Sequence record: OL739525.1
Length of the DNA stretch: 64,000 bases
Direction: 5' to 3' (one strand)
Source: Escherichia phage dw-ec
Shown in pieces: positions 24,403 to 37,523 of this stretch. The notes beneath the pieces were generated by a model, which worked only from the letters and a program-made list of their open reading frames with translations, was not told the origin of the DNA and made no database searches. A program made the translations under genes and the position numbers. How positions within the stretch are numbered: the first letter of the stretch is position 1; each line of letters opens with the position of its first letter.

Positions 24403-27400
24403 ATGGCAACATTCCCAACATATCCAGCAACGTCTCTCGAACAGGGCGTAGACCTGGTTATTTTCTCATCTAACCAACTCCATGATGTTATTAATGGAAG
24501 TGCTACAGAGAGTATTGAAACAGAATCAGGGTTGATACCAACCCTGAGAAAAGCCCTTGTTGACAACTTTTTCTTTAAAAGCCCATTGGATTGGGCGCAA
24601 GGCACAAACGAAACAGTTTTTAACCAACTTCGTTATTTCCAGAATGGAGTATTGAGCGGTTATTACTATGCTCCTAACGCTACATTGGTTAACCCAATCC
24701 CTATGCAAGGGACTCCAGTAGGAGATAACAACTGGGTATTGTGGGGACTGAAAACAGAACAATTAGCAACAGAAGTCACCCCGTGGGTATACTCTGGTGC
24801 AACTGGTTATGAAACAGTAATTAGTCCTCCTTACATCTTTGATAGTGCTATTGTTACGATCAATGGTGTTATTCAGGTTCTGGGGGAAGCTTTCCGTATA
24901 GAAGACAGTAAGATCATCTTATCTGAACCTTTGGGACACGATCCTGCAACAGGACTGCCAAACAAGCTTTTTGCTTATATTGGTAAAATCGTAGCTTCAG
25001 CAGATACAGATCCTAATCTAGAGAACCGTCTTGTTAGTTTAGAAACAAAAACGGAAGAACTAACAGAAAGCATGGATAAAGTCCCTCTGCAAACTATTGC
25101 TCGTAAGTATGGTTTGTTAGATGATGAGGTGGCTTACGCAACAGCAGGTCAATCGTTAACAGGGATTAAAGCTCTGTACGATCCGGTAGCACAGTCTTCC
25201 TACACATTACCTCCTAACATCACAGGAACTTTAACATCCTTATCTGTTTCTGGAGTAATGACTTATTCTGGAGGATCTGTAGACCTTTCTGCACTGGCTG
25301 TTGAGCGTGGACAGTTTGTTCATTTGCCTACAAGCTTTGGTAATAACGTAACTCTGACAGCTAAAAATCAGACGATTGGACGTGGTGCTGGTCGTTATCG
25401 TTGGGCTGGAAGTTTACCAAAAAGTATTTTGGCCTCTGATACATTGGAGACAAGCGGAGGATTAGGTCCAAATGCATGGGTTCTGACTAATACAGAAGGA
25501 CTGTTAACCCCTCGTGGTGGAACATACAACGATCTATTCGATGTTGTCTACTTGTCAGAATTTGCTAACAATACAACTACCTATACCACACCAGAAGCAG
25601 CTTTCCAGGCGGCACTGTTAGCAGCAAAAGCTTCGAAAAGCAAGATTCTCGATGCTTACGGTTGCGACATGACTTTCACGACAAGCTCTTTTGATATTCA
25701 AGATATCACTTTGCGTGGTGGTGTGTTCCGTGGTCAACGCGACTATCGTGTGCAGAATGCTACAGTAGAAGGCACAACTTTCCGTAACTCTCGTGTTATG
25801 TATTGGGGTGGTGCTGTGCGCATGTTCGATTGTTTGTGGGACGGTGCTCCTCGCGCAGGTCAAGTTGGTAGCTTGGTATTCCAAGGCAACCCAATATCAG
25901 GTACTTTTGAAATTGATAATTGTACTTTTAAAAACGGGTTATATGGTATTCTTCAACAAGGAACAGGGGAACCAGTAACACGCGGTGTCTTCCGTAACCT
26001 TACCTTCATGGACATGCAAGGTGATGCAATAGAACTGAACGTCATCAATAAACATTATGACGATGGTTGTGTGATTGAGAATATTTACCTGTCTAATATC
26101 GATGGGACTAACGCTCCTATTCCTCTGTCCAACTGGGGTATCGGTATCGGTGTAGCTGGTAAAGGACCATATGGTTACGGAATCCCTGATGATCAATATT
26201 GTAAGAACATTACAATTCGTAACGTTTTTGCAAAACGTTGTCGTCAGATTGTCCACGTAGAAGTTGGTCGTAATATCTCTATCGAAAACATTCATGGCGA
26301 TCCAGATCAAACCGTATCTGTTGGGACAGGTTTGGCAACTGGCGCAGTTGTAATGTATGGAAGTAAAGACTTTACGATTGATGGTGTTTATGGAGAGCCT
26401 AAAACAGACGGTAGCACACTTGCAAGTAATATCCGTATGATTTACTTGGAGTGGGGAACTAACGCAGTTCTGGATGAAGAGGGTAATCCGGTAGTTCCGG
26501 CACAGGGCAGACCTTCAAACCCATGCTTTAACTATTCTGTTCGTAACGTTCACACCAAAACTGGGCGTGTTTTTGCGGGAGTTTCCGCTGGGCCAGGTTA
26601 TGAAAACAGAGTTAGCTTTGAAAATATTCGTTGCGCTGCCTTGCAGTTGTTCGGTATAGCTTCTTGGCTTTCAATGTCTAACATCACCTGTAATATCTTC
26701 GATTGTGTTGGTCAACCTGAATCTGGTCCAGGGACATTTTATGATGGATTCTTCCGTAGAGAAAAATCTGTTCTTGAAATGGTTAACGTAAACTGTTACC
26801 CAGATGGCAAGACGATGGTTACTGGTCGTCCACAGTGGAGCCGTTGCCGTTACTCGGATATTCATCGTGTCAACTGTAATGTTGAAGCTAATATGTATAC
26901 CAATATCGCAGGTGGTATTGGAGCTATTGTAGGGACAACGGGCAAAGTTTATTACTTAGAGCCTAATCCTAGTCGAAACATTGATGGAATGCATTTCCCA
27001 ACAGGGAAAGAGTTTGACAAAGGGGATATGATAGTCAAGGCGGATAATACGTTCTTCCTTGTAACAACAAGTGGGGCATATATTCCAGATATCCCAGCTT
27101 TCGGTATTCGAGCTACACAGGCAGGAGATACCTTCCTGACACAGAACTTGACTCCTAACGGGACAGCAACAAATGCTTCTTGGTTGTATCATTACCCTCT
27201 GTCAGCAGGGACACGTATCCGTATTCCTGGCGCTGGTGTAGGTGGAGCAGATTTGGACACAGTTATTACTCGTGCACCTTATCAAGATAATGATACGTGG
27301 ACTAACCCAGTTAAAATAGACATTGCAGATCCAATTGTAACGCCTACAAGTGCTGGAGTTAGAATTAAAACCATACCTAATGATTCCAGTAATGTTTCTG

Positions 27401-27456
27401 TAGGTAATACTGCGGTTATTCGCCCAACGCCAGTAGTAGATGTGCCAACAACCTAA
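24403..27456 (+). CDS. tailspike or tail fibre (large)
   Basis: 1017 aa. Shares the W-G-x-PK...STP..GG..AW motif with two other fibre proteins; Gly/Asn-rich beta-helix-like repeats. Confidence 0.5.
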   Translation: MATFPTYPATSLEQGVDLVIFSSNQLHDVINGSATESIETESGLIPTLRKALVDNFFFKSPLDWAQGTNETVFNQLRYFQNGVLSGYYYAPNATLVNPIPMQGTPVGDNNWVLWGLKTEQLATEVTPWVYSGATGYETVISPPYIFDSAIVTINGVIQVLGEAFRIEDSKIILSEPLGHDPATGLPNKLFAYIGKIVASADTDPNLENRLVSLETKTEELTESMDKVPLQTIARKYGLLDDEVAYATAGQSLTGIKALYDPVAQSSYTLPPNITGTLTSLSVSGVMTYSGGSVDLSALAVERGQFVHLPTSFGNNVTLTAKNQTIGRGAGRYRWAGSLPKSILASDTLETSGGLGPNAWVLTNTEGLLTPRGGTYNDLFDVVYLSEFANNTTTYTTPEAAFQAALLAAKASKSKILDAYGCDMTFTTSSFDIQDITLRGGVFRGQRDYRVQNATVEGTTFRNSRVMYWGGAVRMFDCLWDGAPRAGQVGSLVFQGNPISGTFEIDNCTFKNGLYGILQQGTGEPVTRGVFRNLTFMDMQGDAIELNVINKHYDDGCVIENIYLSNIDGTNAPIPLSNWGIGIGVAGKGPYGYGIPDDQYCKNITIRNVFAKRCRQIVHVEVGRNISIENIHGDPDQTVSVGTGLATGAVVMYGSKDFTIDGVYGEPKTDGSTLASNIRMIYLEWGTNAVLDEEGNPVVPAQGRPSNPCFNYSVRNVHTKTGRVFAGVSAGPGYENRVSFENIRCAALQLFGIASWLSMSNITCNIFDCVGQPESGPGTFYDGFFRREKSVLEMVNVNCYPDGKTMVTGRPQWSRCRYSDIHRVNCNVEANMYTNIAGGIGAIVGTTGKVYYLEPNPSRNIDGMHFPTGKEFDKGDMIVKADNTFFLVTTSGAYIPDIPAFGIRATQAGDTFLTQNLTPNGTATNASWLYHYPLSAGTRIRIPGAGVGGADLDTVITRAPYQDNDTWTNPVKIDIADPIVTPTSAGVRIKTIPNDSSNVSVGNTAVIRPTPVVDVPTT

Positions 27457-27462
27457 TGGAAT

Positions 27463-27481
27463 AGAGGGGGATTCCCCCTCT
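27463..27481 (+). other. GC-rich hairpin after tailspike gene
   Basis: AGAGGGGG...CCCCCTCT inverted repeat with no clear U-run. Confidence 0.3.
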
Positions 27482-27517
27482 TCTTCCAATAGAATGGTCT
27501 AATGATAGGAGAGATAA

Positions 27518-29542
27518 ATGAATTTAACAAGACCTAATAGTGCGATAGCCGATCTGGTAGAAGCTACTTATCGAAAACGTCGCAGCTTTGAGGCAGGTTT
27601 TACATTACGTAATTCCCGTGAAGTTTTGCTGTTAGCAGCAGAAGGGAATTATTACCAATGGAAAGGAACTTTTCCTAAAGTTGTTCCAGCAAACTCTACG
27701 CCAGCCACCACAGGTGGTATTTCTTCCCTTGCATGGCAAAGTGTTGGGACCGCTGATGATATAGCAATTATCAATGCCAAGTTTACGGCAATGCAGCAAC
27801 AGATTGATGATCTGTCGGAAACAATACCTGAAGCTGGTAAATCGGCTTATCAGATCGCACTTGATAATGGTTTTGTTGGAACAGAAGCACAATGGCTTGC
27901 TTCTTTGAAAGGGGATACTGGTGCTCAACTTAATATTAAAGGATCATTAGCAAACACTAGTGAACTACCATCCACAGGTAACGTTGCAGGGGATGGTTAT
28001 ATCGTAGGTGATGTAATCTACGCTTGGGACGGTTCTGTTTGGAAACTTATTTCTTCTCTTGGGCCAGAAGGTAAATCAGCTTACGAGGTATGGTTGGCAG
28101 ATGGTAATACAGGATCTGTTTATGATTTTCTTACCTCTATAAAAGGTGATAAAGGTGATGTTGGTCCTACAGGGCCACAGGGAGCACCTGGTGTTAACGC
28201 CAACGGTTTTGATTATCGTGGGGATTTGCCTTCTACAAGTAACTTACCACAACCAAACTCTGAAAACGTAAGTCAAGCTTATTCTATCAATGGTAATCTT
28301 TATGTCTCTAATGGGACAGCTTGGGTCAACATGGGTAATATTGTTGGTCCTCAAGGTCCACAAGGTGAGGCAGGTAAAGACGGTCTTGATGGAACAGATG
28401 GAGATGAAGGGAAATCTGCATATCAAAGTTGGCTGGATGCTGGTAATGAAGGGACAGAAGTAGATTTTATTGCCTCACTTAAAGGTCCAAAAGGAGACAA
28501 AGGTGATCAAGGAGAGCGAGGTCCACAAGGTGAACTAGGTCCACAAGGACCAGTGGGTGCAACAGGATCAGGCTTAGATATTATCGGGGTTCTGAACAGT
28601 GAAGCTGAACTTCCTCCTACCGGAGAAGTAGGTGATGCATATAAAATTAATAATGATTTATATGTTTGGGTTCAAGATGCTACGGAATGGATGAATGTTG
28701 GCAGTCTTGGAGGAACATCAATTACAGCTAAAGGTCATGTTCCGAACAGTGAAGCTCTCCCTGTTTATAATAACTATGGCGATGCCTACTTAACTGAAGA
28801 CACTAGTAATCTTTACATCTATACCTACGATCAAGACACCAATTCCGCATCTTTTGTTGACATGGGAAGTATTAAAGGCGACAAAGGTGAAAAAGGGGAT
28901 AAAGGAGATAAGGGTGATCCTGGAACAAACGGAACCAACGGTACTGATGGGACCAACGGTAAGGACGGCGCACAGTGGTTTGTAGCAACAACTAATCCAG
29001 TTGCAGGAGACGGTGTTATCAATGATTACGCCTTCAATACTACCACTGGAGCAGTGTTTAAGAAAACAGATTCTTCTACGTGGACGCTTATAGGCACTCT
29101 TCCTAGTATACCAGAAGCCCCTCAAGACGGCTTGACGTATGGTCGGTCTGATGGAAACTGGATCGAAATATCAGGATCAGATCCTACGGAAGCTATAACA
29201 CCAACTAGAGTTACAGCAGGTTTCATGGAACTTGAAACAACTGCTGCCAACTCTGGAGCATCTTGGACTCCTTCTGGAACTTCCAATATGTATGTTGTTA
29301 CAGTAACTGATGCTCTGACAGTTGGAGCATGGCCTGGTGTCACTGGCTCTACAAAACCTAAAGCGTTTTCAGCAATGATTTATTTGATTCAAGATACAAC
29401 GGGACACACGGTTACACTAGATGCGTCTTATGGAGCACTAAATGATACAGAAATAGCAACTGCTGCTAACGCAGTAACAATTTTGCAATTAACGTATCCT
29501 GGTGTGGGTGATATCGTGGACATGGTTGTTGTAACACGATAA
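27518..29542 (+). CDS. tail fibre with collagen-like and phage-fibre repeats
   Basis: 674 aa. Gly-X-Y runs (GDKGDVGPTGPQGAPG; GPKGDKGDQGERGPQGELGPQGPVGATG; GDKGEKGDKGDKGDPGTNGTNGTDGTNGKDG) and a thrice-repeated GKSAY...W(L)...LKG unit. Confidence 0.75.
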   Translation: MNLTRPNSAIADLVEATYRKRRSFEAGFTLRNSREVLLLAAEGNYYQWKGTFPKVVPANSTPATTGGISSLAWQSVGTADDIAIINAKFTAMQQQIDDLSETIPEAGKSAYQIALDNGFVGTEAQWLASLKGDTGAQLNIKGSLANTSELPSTGNVAGDGYIVGDVIYAWDGSVWKLISSLGPEGKSAYEVWLADGNTGSVYDFLTSIKGDKGDVGPTGPQGAPGVNANGFDYRGDLPSTSNLPQPNSENVSQAYSINGNLYVSNGTAWVNMGNIVGPQGPQGEAGKDGLDGTDGDEGKSAYQSWLDAGNEGTEVDFIASLKGPKGDKGDQGERGPQGELGPQGPVGATGSGLDIIGVLNSEAELPPTGEVGDAYKINNDLYVWVQDATEWMNVGSLGGTSITAKGHVPNSEALPVYNNYGDAYLTEDTSNLYIYTYDQDTNSASFVDMGSIKGDKGEKGDKGDKGDPGTNGTNGTDGTNGKDGAQWFVATTNPVAGDGVINDYAFNTTTGAVFKKTDSSTWTLIGTLPSIPEAPQDGLTYGRSDGNWIEISGSDPTEAITPTRVTAGFMELETTAANSGASWTPSGTSNMYVVTVTDALTVGAWPGVTGSTKPKAFSAMIYLIQDTTGHTVTLDASYGALNDTEIATAANAVTILQLTYPGVGDIVDMVVVTR

Positions 29543-29544
29543 CA

Positions 29545-29570
29545 GAAGCCCCGAAAGGGGCTTTCTTTTT
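29545..29570 (+). terminator. rho-independent terminator
   Basis: GAAGCCCC-GAAA-GGGGCTT stem then CTTTTT. Confidence 0.6.
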
Positions 29571-29583
29571 ATGGAGGGTTTAA

Positions 29584-32256
29584 ATGTTTCCAATTCCAAT
29601 ATTTACTATTATGACCAGCACTGGTGTCGTTCCTCTGCCAGCGGGTATTGTTAAAAAAGTAATCACTTTAGATTACCCAGATAATGCTGGTAATTCTAAC
29701 AGCAGTTTAGCAATTTTGCTTAATGATGGTAGATTGTTTACTCAAGGCGCAAACCTTTTTGGTGAGATTGCAGATGGAACTCGTAGTGCACGATTCAATA
29801 ATTTCCACTTAGCTTCTACTGTAGTAGCGGATGTGTTTACCGCAGATCGTTGTTTTGTTATTAAAACTAACAGCGGGGGATGGCAATATTCAGGATTGAC
29901 AGCAGGGTTGGTAGGATCTATAGCAGCAGGTGGTACGGATGCATGTGTAACTACTTGGACCAGCTTTCCATCTGTAATAACAGGGACTATCTCTTTAGCC
30001 AATCTTAAAGAGGTTAAAGGAGGGTATAACAATACTCTTTGGTTAATGAATAGCGGTGTTCTTTATGGATCGGGTCAAAACACAGTAGGCAGTTTAGGTG
30101 CAAGCACTACTAACGAAGTTTCTACTCCCCGTCAGATAACAAGTTCAGCAGTTGCTTTTGATGCAGGTTATAACCAATGCTCTTATGTCAACAATGCGGG
30201 AACCTTGCGTGTTTGTGGAGCTAGTAAAGGTTTAGCAGGTAATAATAACACAACAACCGCTTTTGTCAATGCCACGATATCCACTACTGAAACAGTGTAT
30301 GTCAAAGATTACATCAATACAGTTTCCCAGACAATAGTTGTAGGAGATACCTCCGGTGGCGCGGGTACAGTAAACTACTTATATGTTAGATCTAATACAG
30401 AAACAACCTACACTAAACTGGACACCTTTGCAGCAGGTTTCTCAACATGGAAATTTCCACCAAGCCGCCACTCTTTTTTCGTTGGGATCAATAATTCCTT
30501 GTGGGCTATTGGTAAGAACTACACTGCAAACTTAGGTTTGGGATATGATTCTGCGAGCGGAGATCCACTCCAAGTGGGAAAACCAGTTAAACCTGAAGGA
30601 GTGGGTTCCTGGGATATAAACAAGCTCACAAGCGTTCATACGTTGAATATGGATATTACTAACCAATTAGGTTATCAAGGAACCTTTTTCGTTTATAACG
30701 GGGATATGTATTATTCCGGTATTTGGAAAGATGGGAAAGCCTCGTATCTGTTCAATAGTGGTCTAAACTATAATAAATTCACACCAATAGCAAGCTCCGT
30801 GATTACGGGGGATGTTCTGGCAACTGGCTTAACTACAGATTCTTTAGGAATTTGTATTGTAGGTGGAACTAAACAGTTGACACATTCTGTTAGCCCAGAA
30901 GGAGGTAAACTTTTCAATATTAAATACACTTCTTCTGCCCCTGCAAACATGACAATATCATCTACTGGTTTAATGACTTTCCATGCAGAAGGTGGTTTTG
31001 ATGCAGGTATGACAGCCTTAAACGCTGAAGGAACAACTTTATCAGATACCTCTGGAGGATATGCTTCAACATTGAGTGTTTACACCCCTAGCTTATCTGC
31101 GATGGATGTAGGAACAACACAAACAATGGTAGCAGAAATAACGCCAACAGGAGCAGCAAGCTTACCTGGTATGGTTGTTGAGTATACAACTACAGATCCT
31201 AATGTTGCTACAGTAGATCCTACAACTGGTGTAATAACTGGTGTTGGTGATGGTGGTTGTAGAATTGGTTGCACAGCTACATATCAAGGTGTTGTTACCG
31301 CTTCTGATAGTTCTTATTTAACGGTGAACGCTGTTGCGGGAAAGGAGTTAGCTCCATCTCCGAGTAGTAGTTTAACGGTTCTAAACGGATATTTCAACCA
31401 CTCGGCAGATGGGGCAATTACGTTCCCAATTTTATCGGGTACTGTCACACCAGCTAACTTTGTAGTTAAGGTGGATGACGTTGTAATACCTTCAAATAAA
31501 GTAATATTTAGAAATAAAGCTTTCTCTACAGTGGATAGTTATCCAGCAGGAGAATATAGACTGGCTATTGAATTTGCAAGTGCTTCAGTAGTGAATAGTG
31601 TTGATGTGTCTATGGAAGCAAATCCAGATCTTTTAGAATTATGGGGCGGCAACAGAATTGGTTATTCTACAAGCCCAGCCTCACAATTCTTAAAAGGTTG
31701 TGCTAACTTAAGACGAATAACTTCTGATTGTTTTAGTAACACATCTTACACCGGAACATCTATAAGTGGTATCTTCTCTGGCTGTACAAGTTTGACAGCT
31801 ATCCCTGAAGGATTATTCAGTGATGCTTTATTTCCTTCAATGACAACAATGTCAAGCACGTTTGAAGGTTGTACATCTTTAACATCTATTCCTTCAGATT
31901 TATTTAAAAATCTATCAAAAGTTACAAGATATTCTTACACCTTTAAAGATTGCACCTCTCTTGCAGAAGTTCCAGCAGGAATGTTTGATAATATTCCAAC
32001 GAAAGTGACCTCTTTAACAGCTACATTCCAAGGTTGTTTAGCACTTACAGATTTTAATAAAATCTTTAATGACAACCCAGGGTTAACTGTTTGTGGTAAA
32101 CGTGGAGCATTATCTTCTTTCTTTAGTGGATGCACAAATCTTACAGGAACAGGAACAACATTAACAAATACATTAGGCGGAGTAGCTAATAGTTACCTAT
32201 TCAGGTATTGCACAAAACTTTCTGATTATAACAATATTCCTTCGGGTTATAAATAA
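29584..32256 (+). CDS. tail fibre/adhesin with Ig-like and BspA-type leucine-rich-repeat C-terminus
   Basis: 890 aa. Big_2-like segment (PNVATVDPTTGVITGVGDGGCRIGCTATYQGVVTAS). C-terminal repeats of the form F.GCTSLT.IP..LF (FSGCTSLTAIPEGLF, FEGCTSLTSIPSDLF, FKDCTSLAEVPAGMF, FQGCLALTDF, FSGCTNLTG). Confidence 0.55.
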   Translation: MFPIPIFTIMTSTGVVPLPAGIVKKVITLDYPDNAGNSNSSLAILLNDGRLFTQGANLFGEIADGTRSARFNNFHLASTVVADVFTADRCFVIKTNSGGWQYSGLTAGLVGSIAAGGTDACVTTWTSFPSVITGTISLANLKEVKGGYNNTLWLMNSGVLYGSGQNTVGSLGASTTNEVSTPRQITSSAVAFDAGYNQCSYVNNAGTLRVCGASKGLAGNNNTTTAFVNATISTTETVYVKDYINTVSQTIVVGDTSGGAGTVNYLYVRSNTETTYTKLDTFAAGFSTWKFPPSRHSFFVGINNSLWAIGKNYTANLGLGYDSASGDPLQVGKPVKPEGVGSWDINKLTSVHTLNMDITNQLGYQGTFFVYNGDMYYSGIWKDGKASYLFNSGLNYNKFTPIASSVITGDVLATGLTTDSLGICIVGGTKQLTHSVSPEGGKLFNIKYTSSAPANMTISSTGLMTFHAEGGFDAGMTALNAEGTTLSDTSGGYASTLSVYTPSLSAMDVGTTQTMVAEITPTGAASLPGMVVEYTTTDPNVATVDPTTGVITGVGDGGCRIGCTATYQGVVTASDSSYLTVNAVAGKELAPSPSSSLTVLNGYFNHSADGAITFPILSGTVTPANFVVKVDDVVIPSNKVIFRNKAFSTVDSYPAGEYRLAIEFASASVVNSVDVSMEANPDLLELWGGNRIGYSTSPASQFLKGCANLRRITSDCFSNTSYTGTSISGIFSGCTSLTAIPEGLFSDALFPSMTTMSSTFEGCTSLTSIPSDLFKNLSKVTRYSYTFKDCTSLAEVPAGMFDNIPTKVTSLTATFQGCLALTDFNKIFNDNPGLTVCGKRGALSSFFSGCTNLTGTGTTLTNTLGGVANSYLFRYCTKLSDYNNIPSGYK

Positions 32257-32257
32257 G

Positions 32258-32287
32258 AAAAGGAGCCATTTGGCTCCTTTCTTTTAT
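32258..32287. terminator. bidirectional hairpin terminator at the convergence point
   Basis: AAAGGAGCC-ATTT-GGCTCCTTT with A-run upstream and T-run downstream, so it reads as hairpin plus U-tract on both strands. Confidence 0.6.
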
Positions 32288-32322
32288 AAAGTTAACTCTT
32301 CCCATGTTCTTGTGCCGCTTCT

Positions 32323-32345
32323 GGGGGGCCCCCCCCCCCCCCCCC
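32323..32345. repeat. homopolymer tract G6C17
   Basis: GGGGGGCCCCCCCCCCCCCCCCC read directly, in the 3' region of ssb between the convergent gene blocks. Confidence 0.9.
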
Positions 32346-32360
32346 TATAGATCAATAAGA

Positions 32361-33248
32361 TCAGAATGGAATATCATCATCGAAGTCCATTGGAGGTTCT
32401 TCTTGATTACTTGGAGTTGGTTCTGGTTGTGGTTCAGGTTTTTTAACTTCTTTCTTCTCTTCTTTCTTAGGTTGTTCTGCGGAACCACGAATGGCAGCAG
32501 CAACTTTATCAGACAAAGCTAGAACTTTACGAGCAGAGTCAATCAAATCTTCTACAGATACAGTCTTAATGGTATGGTCTTTACAAGCATTGAGGATAGC
32601 GTGACCAACAGATGCCCCAAGATCATAATCATTAATGTCAACGCCACGAGATTCAGCAATTTCCGATTTCAGCGTGACAGTTGCAGATTGAACAACCCCA
32701 GCGATATCGAAAGCATCACCTTTAACACCATTACGAATCAGTTCCAGTGCACCATTTACTGCGTGACCAGTTTCCAGACCTACAGTATCACGTTTTTTAT
32801 AGGACTGCTTAGGAGCAGCATCGTTGGAACCTTTATTGCCAGAAGATTTGTTAGACTTCTGAACACCATCGGTAGACAATACTGTAATACGAGATTTTTT
32901 AGTATTGTAGTAAGTTTTACCGCCTTTATTATCAACGCGATCAATATCAATACTTACTTCTACACCTTTTTCAATAGTGATCCAATTATCACCTTCTTTG
33001 ACTTGCAGGTTTTCATAACCTTCTTTCAGTTCAATGTCACCAAGAGAAATCCAAACACCTTTCTCATCTGGTTTAGCACCTTTCTCTTTCAGAACAAGAG
33101 AAGCTCGGTGAGTTGAAACAATCGTTTTTCCTTCCCAATGAAAAGTTTTAGGTTCAGCGAATTTATCCAGTTTAACGTAGTCTACGATACCAGTTGCATA
33201 AGTTACGGTTTTGCCTTTACGATCAGTTTCAGTATTAATTACGGACAT
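32361..33248 (-). CDS. ssb: single-stranded DNA-binding protein
   Basis: 295 aa ending in the SSB-type acidic tail ...PPMDFDDDIPF, preceded by a Pro/Glu/Lys-rich linker. Confidence 0.8.
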   Translation of the reverse strand: MSVINTETDRKGKTVTYATGIVDYVKLDKFAEPKTFHWEGKTIVSTHRASLVLKEKGAKPDEKGVWISLGDIELKEGYENLQVKEGDNWITIEKGVEVSIDIDRVDNKGGKTYYNTKKSRITVLSTDGVQKSNKSSGNKGSNDAAPKQSYKKRDTVGLETGHAVNGALELIRNGVKGDAFDIAGVVQSATVTLKSEIAESRGVDINDYDLGASVGHAILNACKDHTIKTVSVEDLIDSARKVLALSDKVAAAIRGSAEQPKKEEKKEVKKPEPQPEPTPSNQEEPPMDFDDDIPF

Positions 33249-33264
33249 TATTATCTCCTCTACA

Positions 33265-33657
33265 TTACATTAATTTTGCACAGAAAGAGCGGAGTCTTTC
33301 CATATCATCTTGCTCTAACAGGTATTTACCTTTACCTATTCCAACTCCAATTTCACCATTAGGGAAATGAACTATTTGCACTGGAAAACCTCCGAGTTTA
33401 ATTGTGGCAGCTTTGCCTTCTTCGTCTATAACGTTTCGGATTGTATCTTGCAGTGAAATGAATTCTTTGTTTGTAACAGTGGTTTCAATTATTTCAGATG
33501 TTTCAACACGAGCAGTTAGCTTCTTGTTTCCACCTTGAATAACCAAAATTTGAAAATAAAAAGAGTTGTCAAGACCTACAACATTTTTCTCAACTAGTGT
33601 CAAACTGGTATAGTTTCCATAAACAGTTTCAACAGCTATCTTAGAACGTTCAGTCAT
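33265..33657 (-). CDS. hypothetical protein
   Basis: 130 aa ORF directly upstream of ssb. Confidence 0.45.
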   Translation of the reverse strand: MTERSKIAVETVYGNYTSLTLVEKNVVGLDNSFYFQILVIQGGNKKLTARVETSEIIETTVTNKEFISLQDTIRNVIDEEGKAATIKLGGFPVQIVHFPNGEIGVGIGKGKYLLEQDDMERLRSFCAKLM

Positions 33658-33702
33658 TGAATGCTATCCTATCATAAAATGTTTAATATTGTCAAGCTTT
33701 AA

Positions 33703-34296
33703 TTACCAAGGAATATCCTCTTCTTCCAATCTGGTATCTACTTGAGGTGGACGTGGAACCTTAACCTCTTTCACAAAACGAAGATATGGGAAACGTGTAG
33801 CAATTTTAATAACGTGTTTGGCATCTTCTCTAACGTCTTTGTGCAAGAAGCAGATCCCTGTTTCCAAGGTTGTTTCAAAATCTTTAGAATAATAACAATC
33901 CTTCCCATCAAATGCAGCCTGGCAGATGGACAGATCGAACTCATTTAGAAAGGTTGTCATTACGCTTGGTTCCATAATCATAAGGTTGCAAAGCTGACCA
34001 TCACGTTCAAACTCAAAAACGTGTTTAAGACCAGTAACACCTTCATAATTGTCAGAAGCCTCTTTGTTTCCTAGTTTACGAATATTGGTTCCCATTAAAG
34101 CAGATGCAATTAATCCTTGTATTTGTTCTTCAGTCCGATGTGCAGGAAGGGATGTATAGAAATCAAGATCACGTCCAGCAATATCAAGAATACGCCAATC
34201 ACGAACAGCACCGCCAGCCAAGACAGAATTAGGATCAGCGATCTTTAATACGGTAAGAATTTCTTTGGCAATATTGATTTGTTTTGATTTAGTCAT
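33703..34296 (-). CDS. nucleotidyltransferase-fold protein (CCA-adding-enzyme head-like)
   Basis: 197 aa. Motif VLAGGAVRDWRILDIAGRDLDF matches the pol-beta-type GGxVRD...DxD signature of class II tRNA nucleotidyltransferases. C-terminus ends EEEDIPW. Confidence 0.45.
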   Translation of the reverse strand: MTKSKQINIAKEILTVLKIADPNSVLAGGAVRDWRILDIAGRDLDFYTSLPAHRTEEQIQGLIASALMGTNIRKLGNKEASDNYEGVTGLKHVFEFERDGQLCNLMIMEPSVMTTFLNEFDLSICQAAFDGKDCYYSKDFETTLETGICFLHKDVREDAKHVIKIATRFPYLRFVKEVKVPRPPQVDTRLEEEDIPW

Positions 34297-34507
34297 TGAT
34301 ACGCTCCACAGTTACTTTTACAACATCATCCATATTAATCTCATCCCCCAAGACCTCAATAACACCTTCCTCATAAAGTCGAGCACATTCTTCCCACACT
34401 TCAGCTTCCGTCATTCCACCTGCAATCTTATTTGCAAGACCTTTAATAACATCTTCATTTTGTTCATCAACAAGAATTGAAACATTAAAGCTCACTAATT
34501 TACGCAT
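34289..34507 (-). CDS. hypothetical protein
   Basis: 72 aa acidic protein, RBS AAGGAGAA. Confidence 0.4.
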   Translation of the reverse strand: MRKLVSFNVSILVDEQNEDVIKGLANKIAGGMTEAEVWEECARLYEEGVIEVLGDEINMDDVVKVTVERIND

Positions 34508-34517
34508 TGTTTTCTCC

Positions 34518-34685
34518 TTATACTTCTAAACGGAAAGTTTCTTTAGATACAAAATCGTATCCACCTTTTTCAAGCCAGTCATTGTAAACCTCATCGGCTT
34601 GAGACTCTATCATAAAATACCGAGTGGTAATTTCGTCTCCGACAATACGCACAATTTTATAGCAAATCATGATACCATTTCCCAT
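34518..34685 (-). CDS. small hypothetical protein (55 aa, not in ORF track)
   Basis: ATG overlaps the upstream stop (TAATG); the ORF ends at a TAA embedded in the next gene's RBS. Fills an otherwise empty 170-nt gap. Confidence 0.35.
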   Translation of the reverse strand: MGNGIMICYKIVRIVGDEITTRYFMIESQADEVYNDWLEKGGYDFVSKETFRLEV

Positions 34686-34876
34686 TAATCTTCCTCCAGA
34701 TCAATTTCATTATAACAATGTATGCAGAAACCATCATTGTGCATATGTTGTTCATAAGACATATCTTTACCACAAGACCAACAACGGATATCCCCATCGT
34801 CCCATTCACGTTCTTCTTCACCTTCAAATTCATCTGGTAGGTAAGGCATACCAAAATAATCTAAATCGTAACTCAT
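34685..34876 (-). CDS. small zinc-ribbon-like protein
   Basis: Track ORF 34685-34981 overlaps the polymerase gene. The internal ATG at 34876 has RBS AGGAGAAG and gives a protein with CWSCG...CIHC. Confidence 0.45.
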   Translation of the reverse strand: MSYDLDYFGMPYLPDEFEGEEEREWDDGDIRCWSCGKDMSYEQHMHNDGFCIHCYNEIDLEED

Positions 34877-34889
34877 ATCTTCTCCTATA

Positions 34890-34907
34890 AAGGGGCAGAA
34901 GCCCCTT
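34890..34907 (-). other. hairpin between polymerase gene and small gene
   Basis: AAGGGGC-AGAA-GCCCCTT with no U-run; possible processing or stability element. Confidence 0.3.
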
Positions 34908-34925
34908 ATAAAACAATACGTTAGA

Positions 34926-37523
34926 TCAATGACAGGATGCCCAAGAATTCCCCACATCATATCCAGCAGTAAGCTGAACATTAAGATTGTAAAATTCTCC
35001 AGCCTTAGTAACAGCTAAAGCAGCAAGTTCACCTGCCCGACTATAAGCTGTAAACCATCCACCTTTGGGAGATTCATGAATGTTAGCCCAAATTTGCCCT
35101 GTCTCTTTTTCCTTATTATGCTTCCATTCTTCGACTTTAGCAAGGCATTCTTTATCAATTTTCTTTTGTTCTTCAGGATCGTCTACTTTCTTCCAACCTA
35201 ATGATTCAGGTGAAAACCATTTGAATTCTACAAGGTTACGAGAAACTTCAAGCTGGGCTTCATCGTGATATGCAATCATTTGTTGCACGAAGTCTTTATT
35301 CTTCCAGTCATCTTTAAAGAAGTCAACACTTAGCCCTTCTTCTTCGATCATGTCATCATAAATAACCATTGCACGTTTAGCACAGATAACCCCACCGCTT
35401 TGGAACAGAGAGTTAAGAATCGCGTGAGCAGAACGAGTAGGAACCTTACGACCGTCAATACCCAAAACATATTGTTTACCAGTCTTAACCCAGAAATCAT
35501 TTAAACGTTCTTTAAGACGCGCCAATGGGAATGCAGCTTCCCAGAAAGCATCGAACACCAATTGACCTGTAAACTTGTCGCTACCAATTGTTTTAGCAAC
35601 CTTGTCGGCTTGTGCACCATAGGTAATACCATACTTAACAGATTTAGCAGGACTACGTTCAAATTTACGTCCAATAGTTTCAGTGATACGTTTTGCCATC
35701 ATTGTGTGAACATCGTTAGGTTTCTCTAACAACAGAGCGTTACAATATTCGTGTGGCTCTGGCTCGTACCGCCAACAGTAGTGTGATTCAATTTTTGCTT
35801 CCAAAGAGTCGAAGTCGTAGCCAATCTGGAAGTACTTAGGAACCTCTACACCAAACAAGTTACGCATCTCCCATCCAAACAAAGATGTGACACGAGGAAT
35901 ATTAGCTACAGACCTATGCTTCATACGAGAGGTTGCAGCATCACATGTAGCTGCTGGGGTAGGAATACGACCATCCGCCCTTACTGCGGCTAAGAAACCT
36001 TTATCATATTCTTGATCTTCCTCATCTTCTTCCCAATCAGCACCACCGCCTAAAATAGAGTTCCTACGATGCTTATACGTTAAGTATTCTACAATCTGTG
36101 TAGCATAAGGGAATTTCTCACCTAAAGCTTGCAGGTTAGGACAGATTTCTTTTTCCTGACCTTTGGTAAAACATGGGTTAGTCAATACTTTAAGACCGCG
36201 ACCCTTACCTTTTGCTATACGCTCTTGAATCTTCCTCTCCAAGGTTTCCGGTGTGCACTCCAGATGATCACAACGATCCTGACAAAAATTAGAAGACAGA
36301 GTTTGCTCAACGTAAGCTCGAATACCTTTCTGAAGTTCTTCCTCGCTCTTTTTAATCTTGGTGCCAGATTTAAGAGTCAAGTCTTTATCTTTATATTCAG
36401 ACGGTACCCAACCTAATCCTACAAGCCAGTTTTTAATATGGGTAGTATCGTTCAATGTTGCAGGGATATTAGGATCACACAAAGGCTCATCTGCTGCAAC
36501 TGGCAGTTTCCATTCTTTCCCCAACATCACTAACCACCAATCTCCATCCCTCTCTTCCAAATGACCATCATGTTTCTTAGCAAAATTGATCATATGGTTA
36601 GTTGGCTCTAAGTTCTTTTTAATTTGCAACTTAGGTGGAATAAAAGCCTTAAGATAACCTTTTGTTGCTGGTTTAGGTGGCAAAATAGGCTCAACGAGTA
36701 AACGAAGACGCTCCATTTCTGCATCCAAAAAAGCAAGGTTCTCTTCTGCTTGTTTCATGTTAAAAGCAAACCCACGGTGTTCCTGGCGTGTAATAATGTC
36801 TGCTACACGTTGTTCAAGTTCAAATGGACCTTCCCATTTATCATAATCACCCCATTCTTCCATAAGGTAATTATATACGCTCGTATTGGCTTTGTTGTCA
36901 TAGATACAGTAATAAAGCATATCCGCAGCAAAAGTCTTAAATCGATCTTCTTCTGGAATCTCTTTACGGAAATCTATTTTTACATCACCCCCTGCCTTTC
37001 GAGAAAGTGCTGCCAAGCTATGTCCTGATTTGCCCTCAATCTTTCGATCTGGGTTTAACACTTTACTCAAAATCAAGGAGTCAATAAGTTTTACCTTATT
37101 TTTGCCCCACGTATTATATTTAACACTGTAATCTAAACCATAAAACAGTTTTGTAGCCAACCAGTCATAGTTGATACCGTTGTGAGCCACAGCTATTTCA
37201 ACCAGATATTCAGGCTTATCTTTAAAATAACCTTCATGATTAATAAAGTCTGGGAAATCTTTTAGTTGAAAATGTGTGTAATCTTGCGCCACATACTCTT
37301 TAAGAACATATGTGTATTTACCATCTGACTCTTCATAAGAACGCCCATCAAAGATGTATTTAGGGCCATCGTGGAAAGCTACTATTTCTCCTGTTTCATG
37401 GTTCTCTAAGACAATACAGTGCATTTGAAATGTGTCTTTGAGACGATAAGGACTAGCTAAATAATCGATAGTGTCATTATTCAACAATCCGTTTGCTTCA
37501 ATATCCCATGTAAACTTACTCAC
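34926..37523 (-). CDS. DNA polymerase, family A, with 3'-5' exonuclease domain
   Basis: 865 aa. N-terminal WDIEANGL (exonuclease motif) and KYGITYGAQ (motif B-like). Unsegmented. Confidence 0.85.
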   Translation of the reverse strand: MSKFTWDIEANGLLNNDTIDYLASPYRLKDTFQMHCIVLENHETGEIVAFHDGPKYIFDGRSYEESDGKYTYVLKEYVAQDYTHFQLKDFPDFINHEGYFKDKPEYLVEIAVAHNGINYDWLATKLFYGLDYSVKYNTWGKNKVKLIDSLILSKVLNPDRKIEGKSGHSLAALSRKAGGDVKIDFRKEIPEEDRFKTFAADMLYYCIYDNKANTSVYNYLMEEWGDYDKWEGPFELEQRVADIITRQEHRGFAFNMKQAEENLAFLDAEMERLRLLVEPILPPKPATKGYLKAFIPPKLQIKKNLEPTNHMINFAKKHDGHLEERDGDWWLVMLGKEWKLPVAADEPLCDPNIPATLNDTTHIKNWLVGLGWVPSEYKDKDLTLKSGTKIKKSEEELQKGIRAYVEQTLSSNFCQDRCDHLECTPETLERKIQERIAKGKGRGLKVLTNPCFTKGQEKEICPNLQALGEKFPYATQIVEYLTYKHRRNSILGGGADWEEDEEDQEYDKGFLAAVRADGRIPTPAATCDAATSRMKHRSVANIPRVTSLFGWEMRNLFGVEVPKYFQIGYDFDSLEAKIESHYCWRYEPEPHEYCNALLLEKPNDVHTMMAKRITETIGRKFERSPAKSVKYGITYGAQADKVAKTIGSDKFTGQLVFDAFWEAAFPLARLKERLNDFWVKTGKQYVLGIDGRKVPTRSAHAILNSLFQSGGVICAKRAMVIYDDMIEEEGLSVDFFKDDWKNKDFVQQMIAYHDEAQLEVSRNLVEFKWFSPESLGWKKVDDPEEQKKIDKECLAKVEEWKHNKEKETGQIWANIHESPKGGWFTAYSRAGELAALAVTKAGEFYNLNVQLTAGYDVGNSWASCH

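Follow-up and report, generated by a model that had tools for sequence, protein, structure and literature searches.

An exchangeable leucine-rich repeat tip on a tail protein of Escherichia phage dw-ec and related phapecoctaviruses

The 64,000 nucleotide stretch of Escherichia phage dw-ec DNA analysed here (from sequence record OL739525.1; hereafter, the window) includes a gene for an 890-amino-acid (aa) tail protein at positions 29584-32256. The last 306 residues of this protein make up one of several tips that replace one another on a common stalk, and sequence profiles together with structure predictions support their reading as a leucine-rich repeat (LRR). The tip amounts to an uncharacterised, LRR-type form of a familiar exchangeable phage tip, and is probably a host-recognition cassette traded between phages, not a host-derived domain. 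The gene and its features are as follows.

29584..32256, + strand: whole gene for the 890-aa tail protein (open reading frame (ORF) list; PHROG 11922 'tail protein' matches its full length)
29605..30786, + strand: N-terminal RCC1-like beta-propeller (aa ~8-401), conserved scaffold (Pfam WD40_RLD, E 2.1e-11; RCC1, 23.8 bits versus a gathering score (GA) of 21.7)
30826..31083, + strand: Big_2 immunoglobulin (Ig)-like domain 1 (aa ~415-500; Pfam Big_2; beta-sandwich in the model)
31096..31329, + strand: Big_2 Ig-like domain 2 (aa ~505-582), ending in the junction motif SSYLTVNAV (best Pfam Big_2 stretch aa 505-565)
31333..31359, + strand: flexible linker at the swap junction (aa 584-592; predicted local distance difference test score (pLDDT) <50 in the full-length model)
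31335..32345, + strand: exchangeable DNA cassette, made up of the tip-coding segment with its stop codon and own terminator, plus part of the spacer (homology breaks versus phAPEC8)
31375..31641, + strand: unannotated beta-sandwich (aa ~598-686), within the cassette (AlphaFold2 (AF2) strands at segment residues 13-101, block pLDDT mostly 83-94)
31687..31773, + strand: LRR unit 1 (aa 702-730), degenerate, FLKGCANLRRITSDCFSNTSYTGTSISGI (motif scan)
31774..31860, + strand: LRR unit 2 (aa 731-759), full consensus, FSGCTSLTAIPEGLF... (motif scan; model strand aa 755-757)
31861..31941, + strand: LRR unit 3 (aa 760-786), full consensus, FEGCTSLTSIPSDLF... (motif scan; model strand aa 782-784)
31942..32025, + strand: LRR unit 4 (aa 787-814), FKDCTSLAEVPAGMF... 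(motif scan; model strand aa 810-812)
32026..32199, + strand: LRR units 5 and 6 (aa 815-846 and 847-872), degenerate (motif scan; model helices aa 824-839 and 858-863)
32200..32253, + strand: C-terminal cap unit 7 (aa 873-890), FRYCTKLSDYNNIPSGYK, at the protein end (cap common to homologues)
32259..32280, both strands: bidirectional terminator-like hairpin directly 3' of the stop codon, in the cassette (terminator scan)

The domain order was taken from a full-length model built on a 36-sequence alignment (pLDDT 86.7). It places a beta-propeller at aa 8-401, Big_2 domains at aa 415-500 and 512-582, then the linker, a beta-sandwich at aa 598-686 and the LRR to aa 890. The propeller region is all-beta, with pLDDT mostly >85. 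Big_2 scored 36.6 bits against a gathering score of 22.8, in two stretches, and 47.2 bits when the segment was scanned alone. No Pfam model matches the beta-sandwich at aa 598-686; in Foldseek it weakly resembles Ig-like domains found in tail and tailspike proteins of phages, among them CBA120 TSP4. A first-pass annotation, made from the sequence alone, had described a Big_2-like Ig segment preceding the LRR. Big_2 is indeed present and upstream, but it is not directly adjacent, as the linker and the beta-sandwich intervene. The start that it gave for the C-terminal segment, 31200, corresponds to aa 540, inside the second Big_2 domain.

The repeats fill the last 190 residues (nt 31687-32253) with seven units, spaced 26-32 aa apart. 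Six of them have the motif F-x-[GDY]-C-x-x-L, at aa 731, 760, 787, 815, 847 and 873, and a seventh, variant unit (FLKGC..L) starts at aa 702. When aa 691-890 were shuffled 100,000 times, the motif appeared at least twice in only 3 shuffles and at least three times in none, and the repeats are therefore not a product of chance. The same residues hold 9 of the 16 cysteines in the protein, mostly one per repeat. At least five repeats of the type F.GCTSLT.IP..LF had been claimed; this stands for the core F..C..L part, but the full consensus is found only in the three units at aa 731, 760 and 787, the first unit and the last three being degenerate. The cap, C..L.[DN]Y..IP..[WY]K, also forms the C-terminal end in 36/120 homologues.

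When aa 593-890 (298 aa) were used as a query, 722 relatives were returned, the longest of 522 aa, so that large bacterial surface proteins are under-represented in this set; 96 of them were aligned. Among the aligned homologues, 48/96 match LRR_5 (best E 6.7e-42) and 32/96 match DUF285 (best E 1.3e-72). The 96-homologue profile matched the solved LRR_5 proteins 4fs7 (E 5.6e-29) and 4gt6 (E 1.6e-24), followed by dozens of further LRR structures, and the query itself matched the designed LRR 4psj at E 6.6e-6. AF2 predicted aa 586-890 (pLDDT 90.6, predicted template modelling score 0.88) as a beta-sandwich followed by a curved solenoid with a helical C-terminal cap; one short strand per ~28 residues in the solenoid forms a parallel sheet. 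An independent model of an identical fragment (phage anhysbys) in BFVD superposes at a template modelling (TM) score of 0.97.

Some observations count against an LRR. The query on its own scored below every curated Pfam or NCBIfam LRR cutoff: 19.6 bits (E 8.8e-4) for LRR_5 (PF13306; GA 27.7), 16.4 bits (E 7.5e-3) for DUF285 (PF03382; cutoff 25) and 17.4 bits (E 2.8e-3) for TIGR02167 'PARCEL repeat' (cutoff 30). LRRs rank first in a Foldseek search of the PDB, but superpose poorly (TM ~0.2). It was the homologue profiles and the predicted structure that settled the fold. Overall, hidden Markov model searches and structure prediction both agree with the first-pass reading, Big_2 being found above threshold, the LRR through the homologue profile and the solenoid in the AF2 model.

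Comparison of the window with phAPEC8 DNA revealed 97.7% homology that ends at 31334 and 98.5% homology that resumes at 32346. The replaced unit is therefore 31335-32345. Its phAPEC8 counterpart lies at NC_020079 100072-~101044. A different hairpin lies in phAPEC8 at the position corresponding to 32259-32280. The phAPEC8 gp086 protein is 97% identical over aa 1-584 and unrelated beyond. For half of the phapecoctavirus records the match to the gene is confined to nucleotides 1-1751; each of the two tip alleles is carried by about half of all phapecoctavirus records. The LRR tip, at ≥91% identity, was counted in 35 phage records. The remaining phapecoctaviruses have the phAPEC8-type tip, which also occurs in a Justusliebigvirus 'lateral tail fiber protein' (91.5%) and in PHB05-like phages (~63%), with distant matches in Kagunavirus, RcapMu and cyanophage tail genes.

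The two alleles are also shared between phage groups. Between the window and phiWec190, the scaffold shares 80-82% aa identity (73-74% nt) and the tip 91% (86-92% nt). Likewise, phiWec181 and phAPEC8 share 75-83% aa identity in the scaffold and 98.7% in the tip. Thus, both tip alleles cross the Phapecoctavirus/'Wecvirus' boundary at higher identity than the scaffold, a pattern that marks horizontal exchange of cassettes.

With only the scaffold as query, 41 proteins from ~150-kb phage contigs were recovered. All 41 break at the '...SSYLxVNA' junction, and their tips fall into at least five classes: the LRR tip, ending ...DYxxIPxxYK/WK; the phAPEC8-type tip, ending ...GLKYYD; a canonical DUF285 tip, in P0151 (PF03382, E 1.1e-42, 145 bits); one other tip, in P0150; and no tip at all, in proteins of 564-609 aa. 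The P0151 gene is syntenic, preceded by a WcaM-type spike and a Tail_spike_N/collagen fibre and followed by a block of single-stranded DNA-binding protein (SSB) and polymerase genes. The tip-less homologues end exactly at '...SSYLxVNA(P)'. Tip-less propeller-Big_2-Big_2 scaffolds were seen in contig L014 (P0162) and in Salmonella phages KE22 and KE23 (P0170 and P0171), where they end '...SSYLSVNAP'. The tail genes end with P0162, without a separate tip gene downstream. In another, ~128-kb phage contig (L004, 3929-6076), the propeller is absent and a separate 216-aa gene precedes a 494-aa Big_2-Big_2-sandwich-LRR protein, which is 55-58% identical to aa 400-890 here.

The gene is the final one of a + strand tail-fibre block, after baseplate, fibre, tailspike and Tail_spike_N/collagen fibre genes. 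Immediately upstream, ORF 27518-29542 (+) encodes a 674-aa fibre with a Tail_spike_N (TSP1/Gp66-type) anchor and collagen-like G-x-y repeats, and a terminator-like hairpin (29545-29564) separates the two genes. The 890-aa protein is 99.9% identical to its counterpart in phage ETEC-TG and 97.7% identical to ESCO5 gp226 'tail protein'. In ESCO5 the order of the block is baseplate wedge, tail fibre, fibre assembly, 'colanic acid degradation' tailspike, 674-aa fibre and gp226, followed by a strand switch and then SSB and replication genes; the layout of the window is the same. The gene matches >60 records of Phapecoctavirus (Stephanstirmvirinae), a group of ~150-kb E. coli myophages. In a published comparison the 890/891-aa protein was named 'TfpM1', and Justusliebigvirus (phi92-like) was without it (PMC12695924). 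Phapecoctaviruses are among the coliphages of broadest host range in therapy and biocontrol cocktails, with receptors unknown (PMC10844046). The gene or tip is also ~91-100% identical to those of E. coli phapecoctaviruses in MG065650 (Campylobacter phage B15), OR584014 (Pseudomonas phage PsgM04F), OP562383 (Acinetobacter phage ABPW7) and MH252123 (Klebsiella phage ZCKP1). Either these host labels may be wrong or the phages may be unusually polyvalent.

Rearranged relatives of the gene were also found. P0001, a 396-aa metagenomic protein, consists of the first 73 aa (the Tail_spike_N anchor) of the upstream 674-aa fibre fused to aa 568-890, which correspond to 27518-27736 and 31285-32256 of the window. 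The parental sites share 10/11 nt (CAA[A/G]GTGTTG[G/T]), which suggests that P0001 is a real microhomology-mediated deletion of ~3.5 kb that has placed the LRR tip on another anchor. P0126 and P0131 (610 aa) are without window 30169-31008 (aa 196-475), with aa 195 joined to aa 476 at a repeated 'FDAG' motif. The deletion takes out over half of the propeller together with most of Big_2 domain 1 (aa 415-475), and the tip is kept. These two proteins are from separate contigs of 143 and 147 kb and differ by point substitutions.

The same repeat type is present in other phages. In Klebsiella phage ST16-OXA48phi5.4, a P2-like prophage, it builds the C-terminal part of a P2 gpI-like 'tail protein I', gp35 (1008 aa; L010 2523-5549), where there are 7-8 matching places per record. 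This protein is a separate instance of an LRR tip, on an enterobacterial phage baseplate protein. The repeats were also found among the tail-fibre genes of Synechococcus phage S-CBWM1, in jumbo phages and in Bacillus phage G, and shorter relatives have capsid, holin, collar and integrase genes around them on contigs that look phage-like. Many uncultured phage proteins in BFVD are already named BspA-family or LRR_5. An exhaustive HMMER search returned 14,377 clusters at E ≤1e-3, many of them multi-repeat proteins of 1-7 kaa; the only one collinear with the whole module was a member of the same phage scaffold family. The large relatives sampled were adhesin-like, combining Mfa-like fimbrillin, BACON, PKD or Flg_new domains with DUF285, and another was phage-like, with DUF2612, Big_2 and DUF285 followed by the cap. 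Searches of the literature found no paper on an LRR/DUF285 tip of a phage receptor-binding protein, or on LRR or RCC1 in this protein, and only incidental annotations of LRR/BspA modules in phage tail fibres, e.g. in Vibrio phage pir03. LRR adhesin modules had been called unusual as phage tips; they are uncharacterised but not rare, as many phage proteins have the repeats, among them tail proteins from cultured phages that are unrelated.

We propose, with a probability of roughly 0.65, that the protein forms the distal end of a modular Phapecoctavirus tail appendage, in which an exchangeable LRR tip on a scaffold contributes to adsorption and host range by binding a host-surface ligand. The conserved scaffold is aa 1-584 (the RCC1-like propeller and the two Big_2 domains), and its Ig domains would serve as a spacer. 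The cassette that it carries (aa 585-890) consists of a flexible linker, a small beta-sandwich, an LRR solenoid of seven units, seemingly of the DUF285/PARCEL ('BspA-family') type, and the conserved helical cap. The protein would be incorporated into the virion, and the concave beta-sheet face of the LRR would be the part that binds the host-surface ligand. The predicted concave strands are at aa ~726-728, 755-757, 782-784 and 810-812, with exposed residues at the x positions of V-T-x-[FY]-x-x-x-F. Specificity would change through recombination of whole tip cassettes at the '...SSYLTVNAV' junction. As LRR, propeller and Ig domains are not typical elements of trimeric fibres or beta-helices, the appendage may be monomeric. 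We infer receptor binding from where the gene lies, from how the cassette behaves and from the fact that lateral tail fibres make use of the alternative tip. The description 'receptor-binding tip' in the first-pass annotation is thus plausible as far as a discrete cassette is swapped with a tip found in the lateral tail fibres of other phages, while the binding itself is a presumption.

Published mutants bear on this proposal. Phages phiWec188 and phiWec190 lose infectivity on a yhaH mutant of strain TK001 and not on an flhD mutant, the reverse applies to phiWec179, phiWec181 and phiWec186, and all five need waaT (PMC12548472). The tail-fibre proteins are identical within each phiWec group (PMC12695924). 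We found the LRR tip in phiWec188 and phiWec190, and confirmed the phAPEC8-type tip in phiWec181. Several points nevertheless weigh against receptor binding by the LRR tip. TfpL, like the tip allele, differs between the two phiWec groups, which confounds the link of the allele to yhaH or flhD dependence, and a tail tip has no direct access to YhaH, a protein of the inner membrane. A literature search found no proteomic data placing the protein in the virion, and a 'genomics and proteomics' paper on O177 phages contains no mass spectrometry. The tip also looks dispensable, as there are tip-less scaffolds in relatives, the gene is absent from Justusliebigvirus and in-frame deletion variants are circulating. 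Finally, the 31 variable positions among close alleles are scattered and not concentrated on one face.

The dispensability of the tip, and seemingly even of the gene, would suit an accessory Ig and LRR adhesin that is not the receptor binder for infection and that holds the virion to mucus, biofilm matrix, capsule or non-host surfaces, or only aids reversible adsorption. This explanation, modelled on proposals for Hoc-like Ig decorations, is in keeping with the presence of Big_2 Ig-like domains and with the several other fibres and spikes of these phages. We consider it unlikely, though it is the strongest of the alternatives, since the cassette is exchanged with a tip that other coliphages use in their lateral tail fibres, both alleles stay conserved between phage groups, as a selected specificity determinant should, and the allele co-varies with the host-factor dependence of the published mutants. 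In its reversible-adsorption version it is also hardly distinct from the proposal above. A right-handed beta-helix of the tailspike/pectate-lyase kind with depolymerase activity, in place of an LRR, is very improbable. This gene block often includes beta-helix tailspikes, such as the nearby 'colanic acid degradation' protein, and the Foldseek matches to LRRs in the PDB are weak; but pectate-lyase proteins appear in BFVD only at E >0.01 and TM ~0.2, ranked under many LRR proteins, and the sole sequence-profile matches are to LRR families. With LRRs matched in profile and structure and no beta-helix among the good matches, the result is thus not that of a beta-helix without LRR relatives. The beta-helix/depolymerase reading was rejected on the BFVD ranking and the sequence profiles.

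The first-pass annotation had also suggested that the domain was captured from the host, and a recent acquisition of the LRR module from a bacterial host surface adhesin gene, grafted onto a phage fibre, has in its favour the abundance of the repeat family in adhesin-like bacterial proteins (the large relatives with Mfa-like fimbrillin, BACON, PKD and Flg_new domains). It is also in keeping with the base composition of the cassette, which has a G+C content of 0.365 versus 0.407 in the rest of the gene, and of 0.222 versus 0.276 at third codon positions (GC3). However, the difference in G+C (cassette 31335-32256, 0.365; LRR part, 0.34; window, 0.394) is small and partly reflects amino-acid composition. 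At the nucleotide level, blastn found no match to the cassette among 5,426 complete E. coli genomes, and in 185,579 species genomes the sole close match (97%) was a mis-binned phage contig, the next being a Bacteroidales metagenome-assembled genome (MAG) at 30%. Nor did the collections searched yield any chromosomal gene of Enterobacteria, outside prophages, with >60% identity over aa 598-890. Recent capture from E. coli was rejected on these grounds. Moreover, proteins collinear with the whole module were found only in the same phage scaffold family, and the bacterial relatives seen resemble Bacteroidota or Bacillota surface proteins, not enterobacterial ones, if their taxonomy is judged from domain types. 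The syntenic genes of diverged relatives hold either a 55-58% identical module or the canonical DUF285 tip; the module is therefore old and circulating among phages, and we regard host capture as improbable. The repeat family is found in phage tail proteins and bacterial adhesins alike, and may have passed between them, in one direction or the other, in the distant past. Contig JAEZZU010000064.1 ('MAG: Proteobacteria bacterium OH_PFB_59', a GTDB representative) is collinear with window 27339-36106 (8.7 kb) at 97.5-97.9% identity, and is a phapecoctavirus contig binned into a bacterial MAG. A single-protein scan of IMG/VR returned no match.

Should host binding by the LRR be borne out, phages would have in it a new recognition module, re-targetable and probably monomeric. 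LRR scaffolds are easily engineered, as repebodies and variable lymphocyte receptors (VLRs) illustrate. The exact cassette bounds (31335-32345) and the natural alleles on a near-identical scaffold offer a testable handle on host range. The annotation is also corrected for a domain that falls below Pfam thresholds in a protein labelled only 'tail protein' or 'hypothetical protein' in databases. More tentatively, capped ('...C..L.DY..IP..WK') DUF285/PARCEL-type LRR solenoids could be a widespread, unrecognised class of phage receptor-binding tip on unrelated scaffolds: propeller-Ig here, the Klebsiella P2 gpI-like baseplate protein, DUF2612 proteins, and cyanophage and jumbo-phage tail genes. 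Such a class might help to explain the punctate spread of PARCEL in bacteria and protists. Here, the LRR tip might confer a receptor specificity distinct from that of the phAPEC8-type tip, with the yhaH and flhD phenotypes as a read-out.

Among known repeat families, the closest appears to be DUF285/PARCEL. The family unit in the trimmed alignment is F..C.SLT.IP..LF.N...VT.F..., and the commonest period among relatives is 27 aa. The LRR_5 unit is ~23 aa long, and the ~27-aa period and F.GCTSLT.IP..LF.....VT.F motif seem a better fit to DUF285/PARCEL. The tip shares with that family the signature F-x-G-C-[TS]-S-L-T-x-[IL]-x...V-T-x-[FM]-x-x-x-F and the 27-aa commonest period; 32/96 homologues match PF03382, the tip of a syntenic orthologue does so at E 1e-42, and the weak direct matches of the query are to DUF285 and TIGR02167. 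The signals are mixed, in that LRR_5 matches outnumber those to DUF285 among homologues (48 versus 32 of 96) and both direct matches are sub-threshold; NCBI names LRR_5 and DUF285/PARCEL alike 'BspA family'. The query differs from DUF285/PARCEL in falling below the curated cutoffs, in having only seven units, four of them degenerate, and in its place at the C-terminal end of a phage tail protein, where it follows a beta-sandwich and closes with the ...DYxxIPxxYK cap. Described PARCEL members are bacterial or protist surface proteins with a punctate spread resembling horizontal gene transfer, and phages were not considered (PMC2996958). From the LRR_5 (PF13306) BspA/TpLRR structures (BACOVA_04585 4fs7, 4gt6, EUBVEN 4h09 and Treponema pallidum TpLRR 6mlx) the query differs in its 27-29 aa units and its score of 19.6 bits against a GA of 27.7.

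Hybrid structures of LRR internalins and VLRs were among the profile matches. The Listeria internalins InlA and InlB likewise pair an LRR solenoid with an Ig-like beta-sandwich for cell-surface recognition. However, the order is reversed in the phage protein (sandwich before LRR), the repeat class differs (internalin units are 22 aa) and there is no detectable specific homology. The allelic counterpart is phAPEC8 gp086 (YP_007348548.1, 891 aa), which has the same scaffold at the same genomic position and differs in its last 307 aa, which contain no LRR and have no Pfam match. In a wider sense, the protein resembles the modular receptor-binding proteins of the phi92/rV5-like adsorption apparatus and the branched tailspikes of Ackermannviridae, where a conserved N-terminal part also carries an exchanged C-terminal module within a fibre and spike cluster. 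What sets it apart from these systems is an LRR solenoid tip on a beta-propeller and Ig scaffold, known here from sequence and models.

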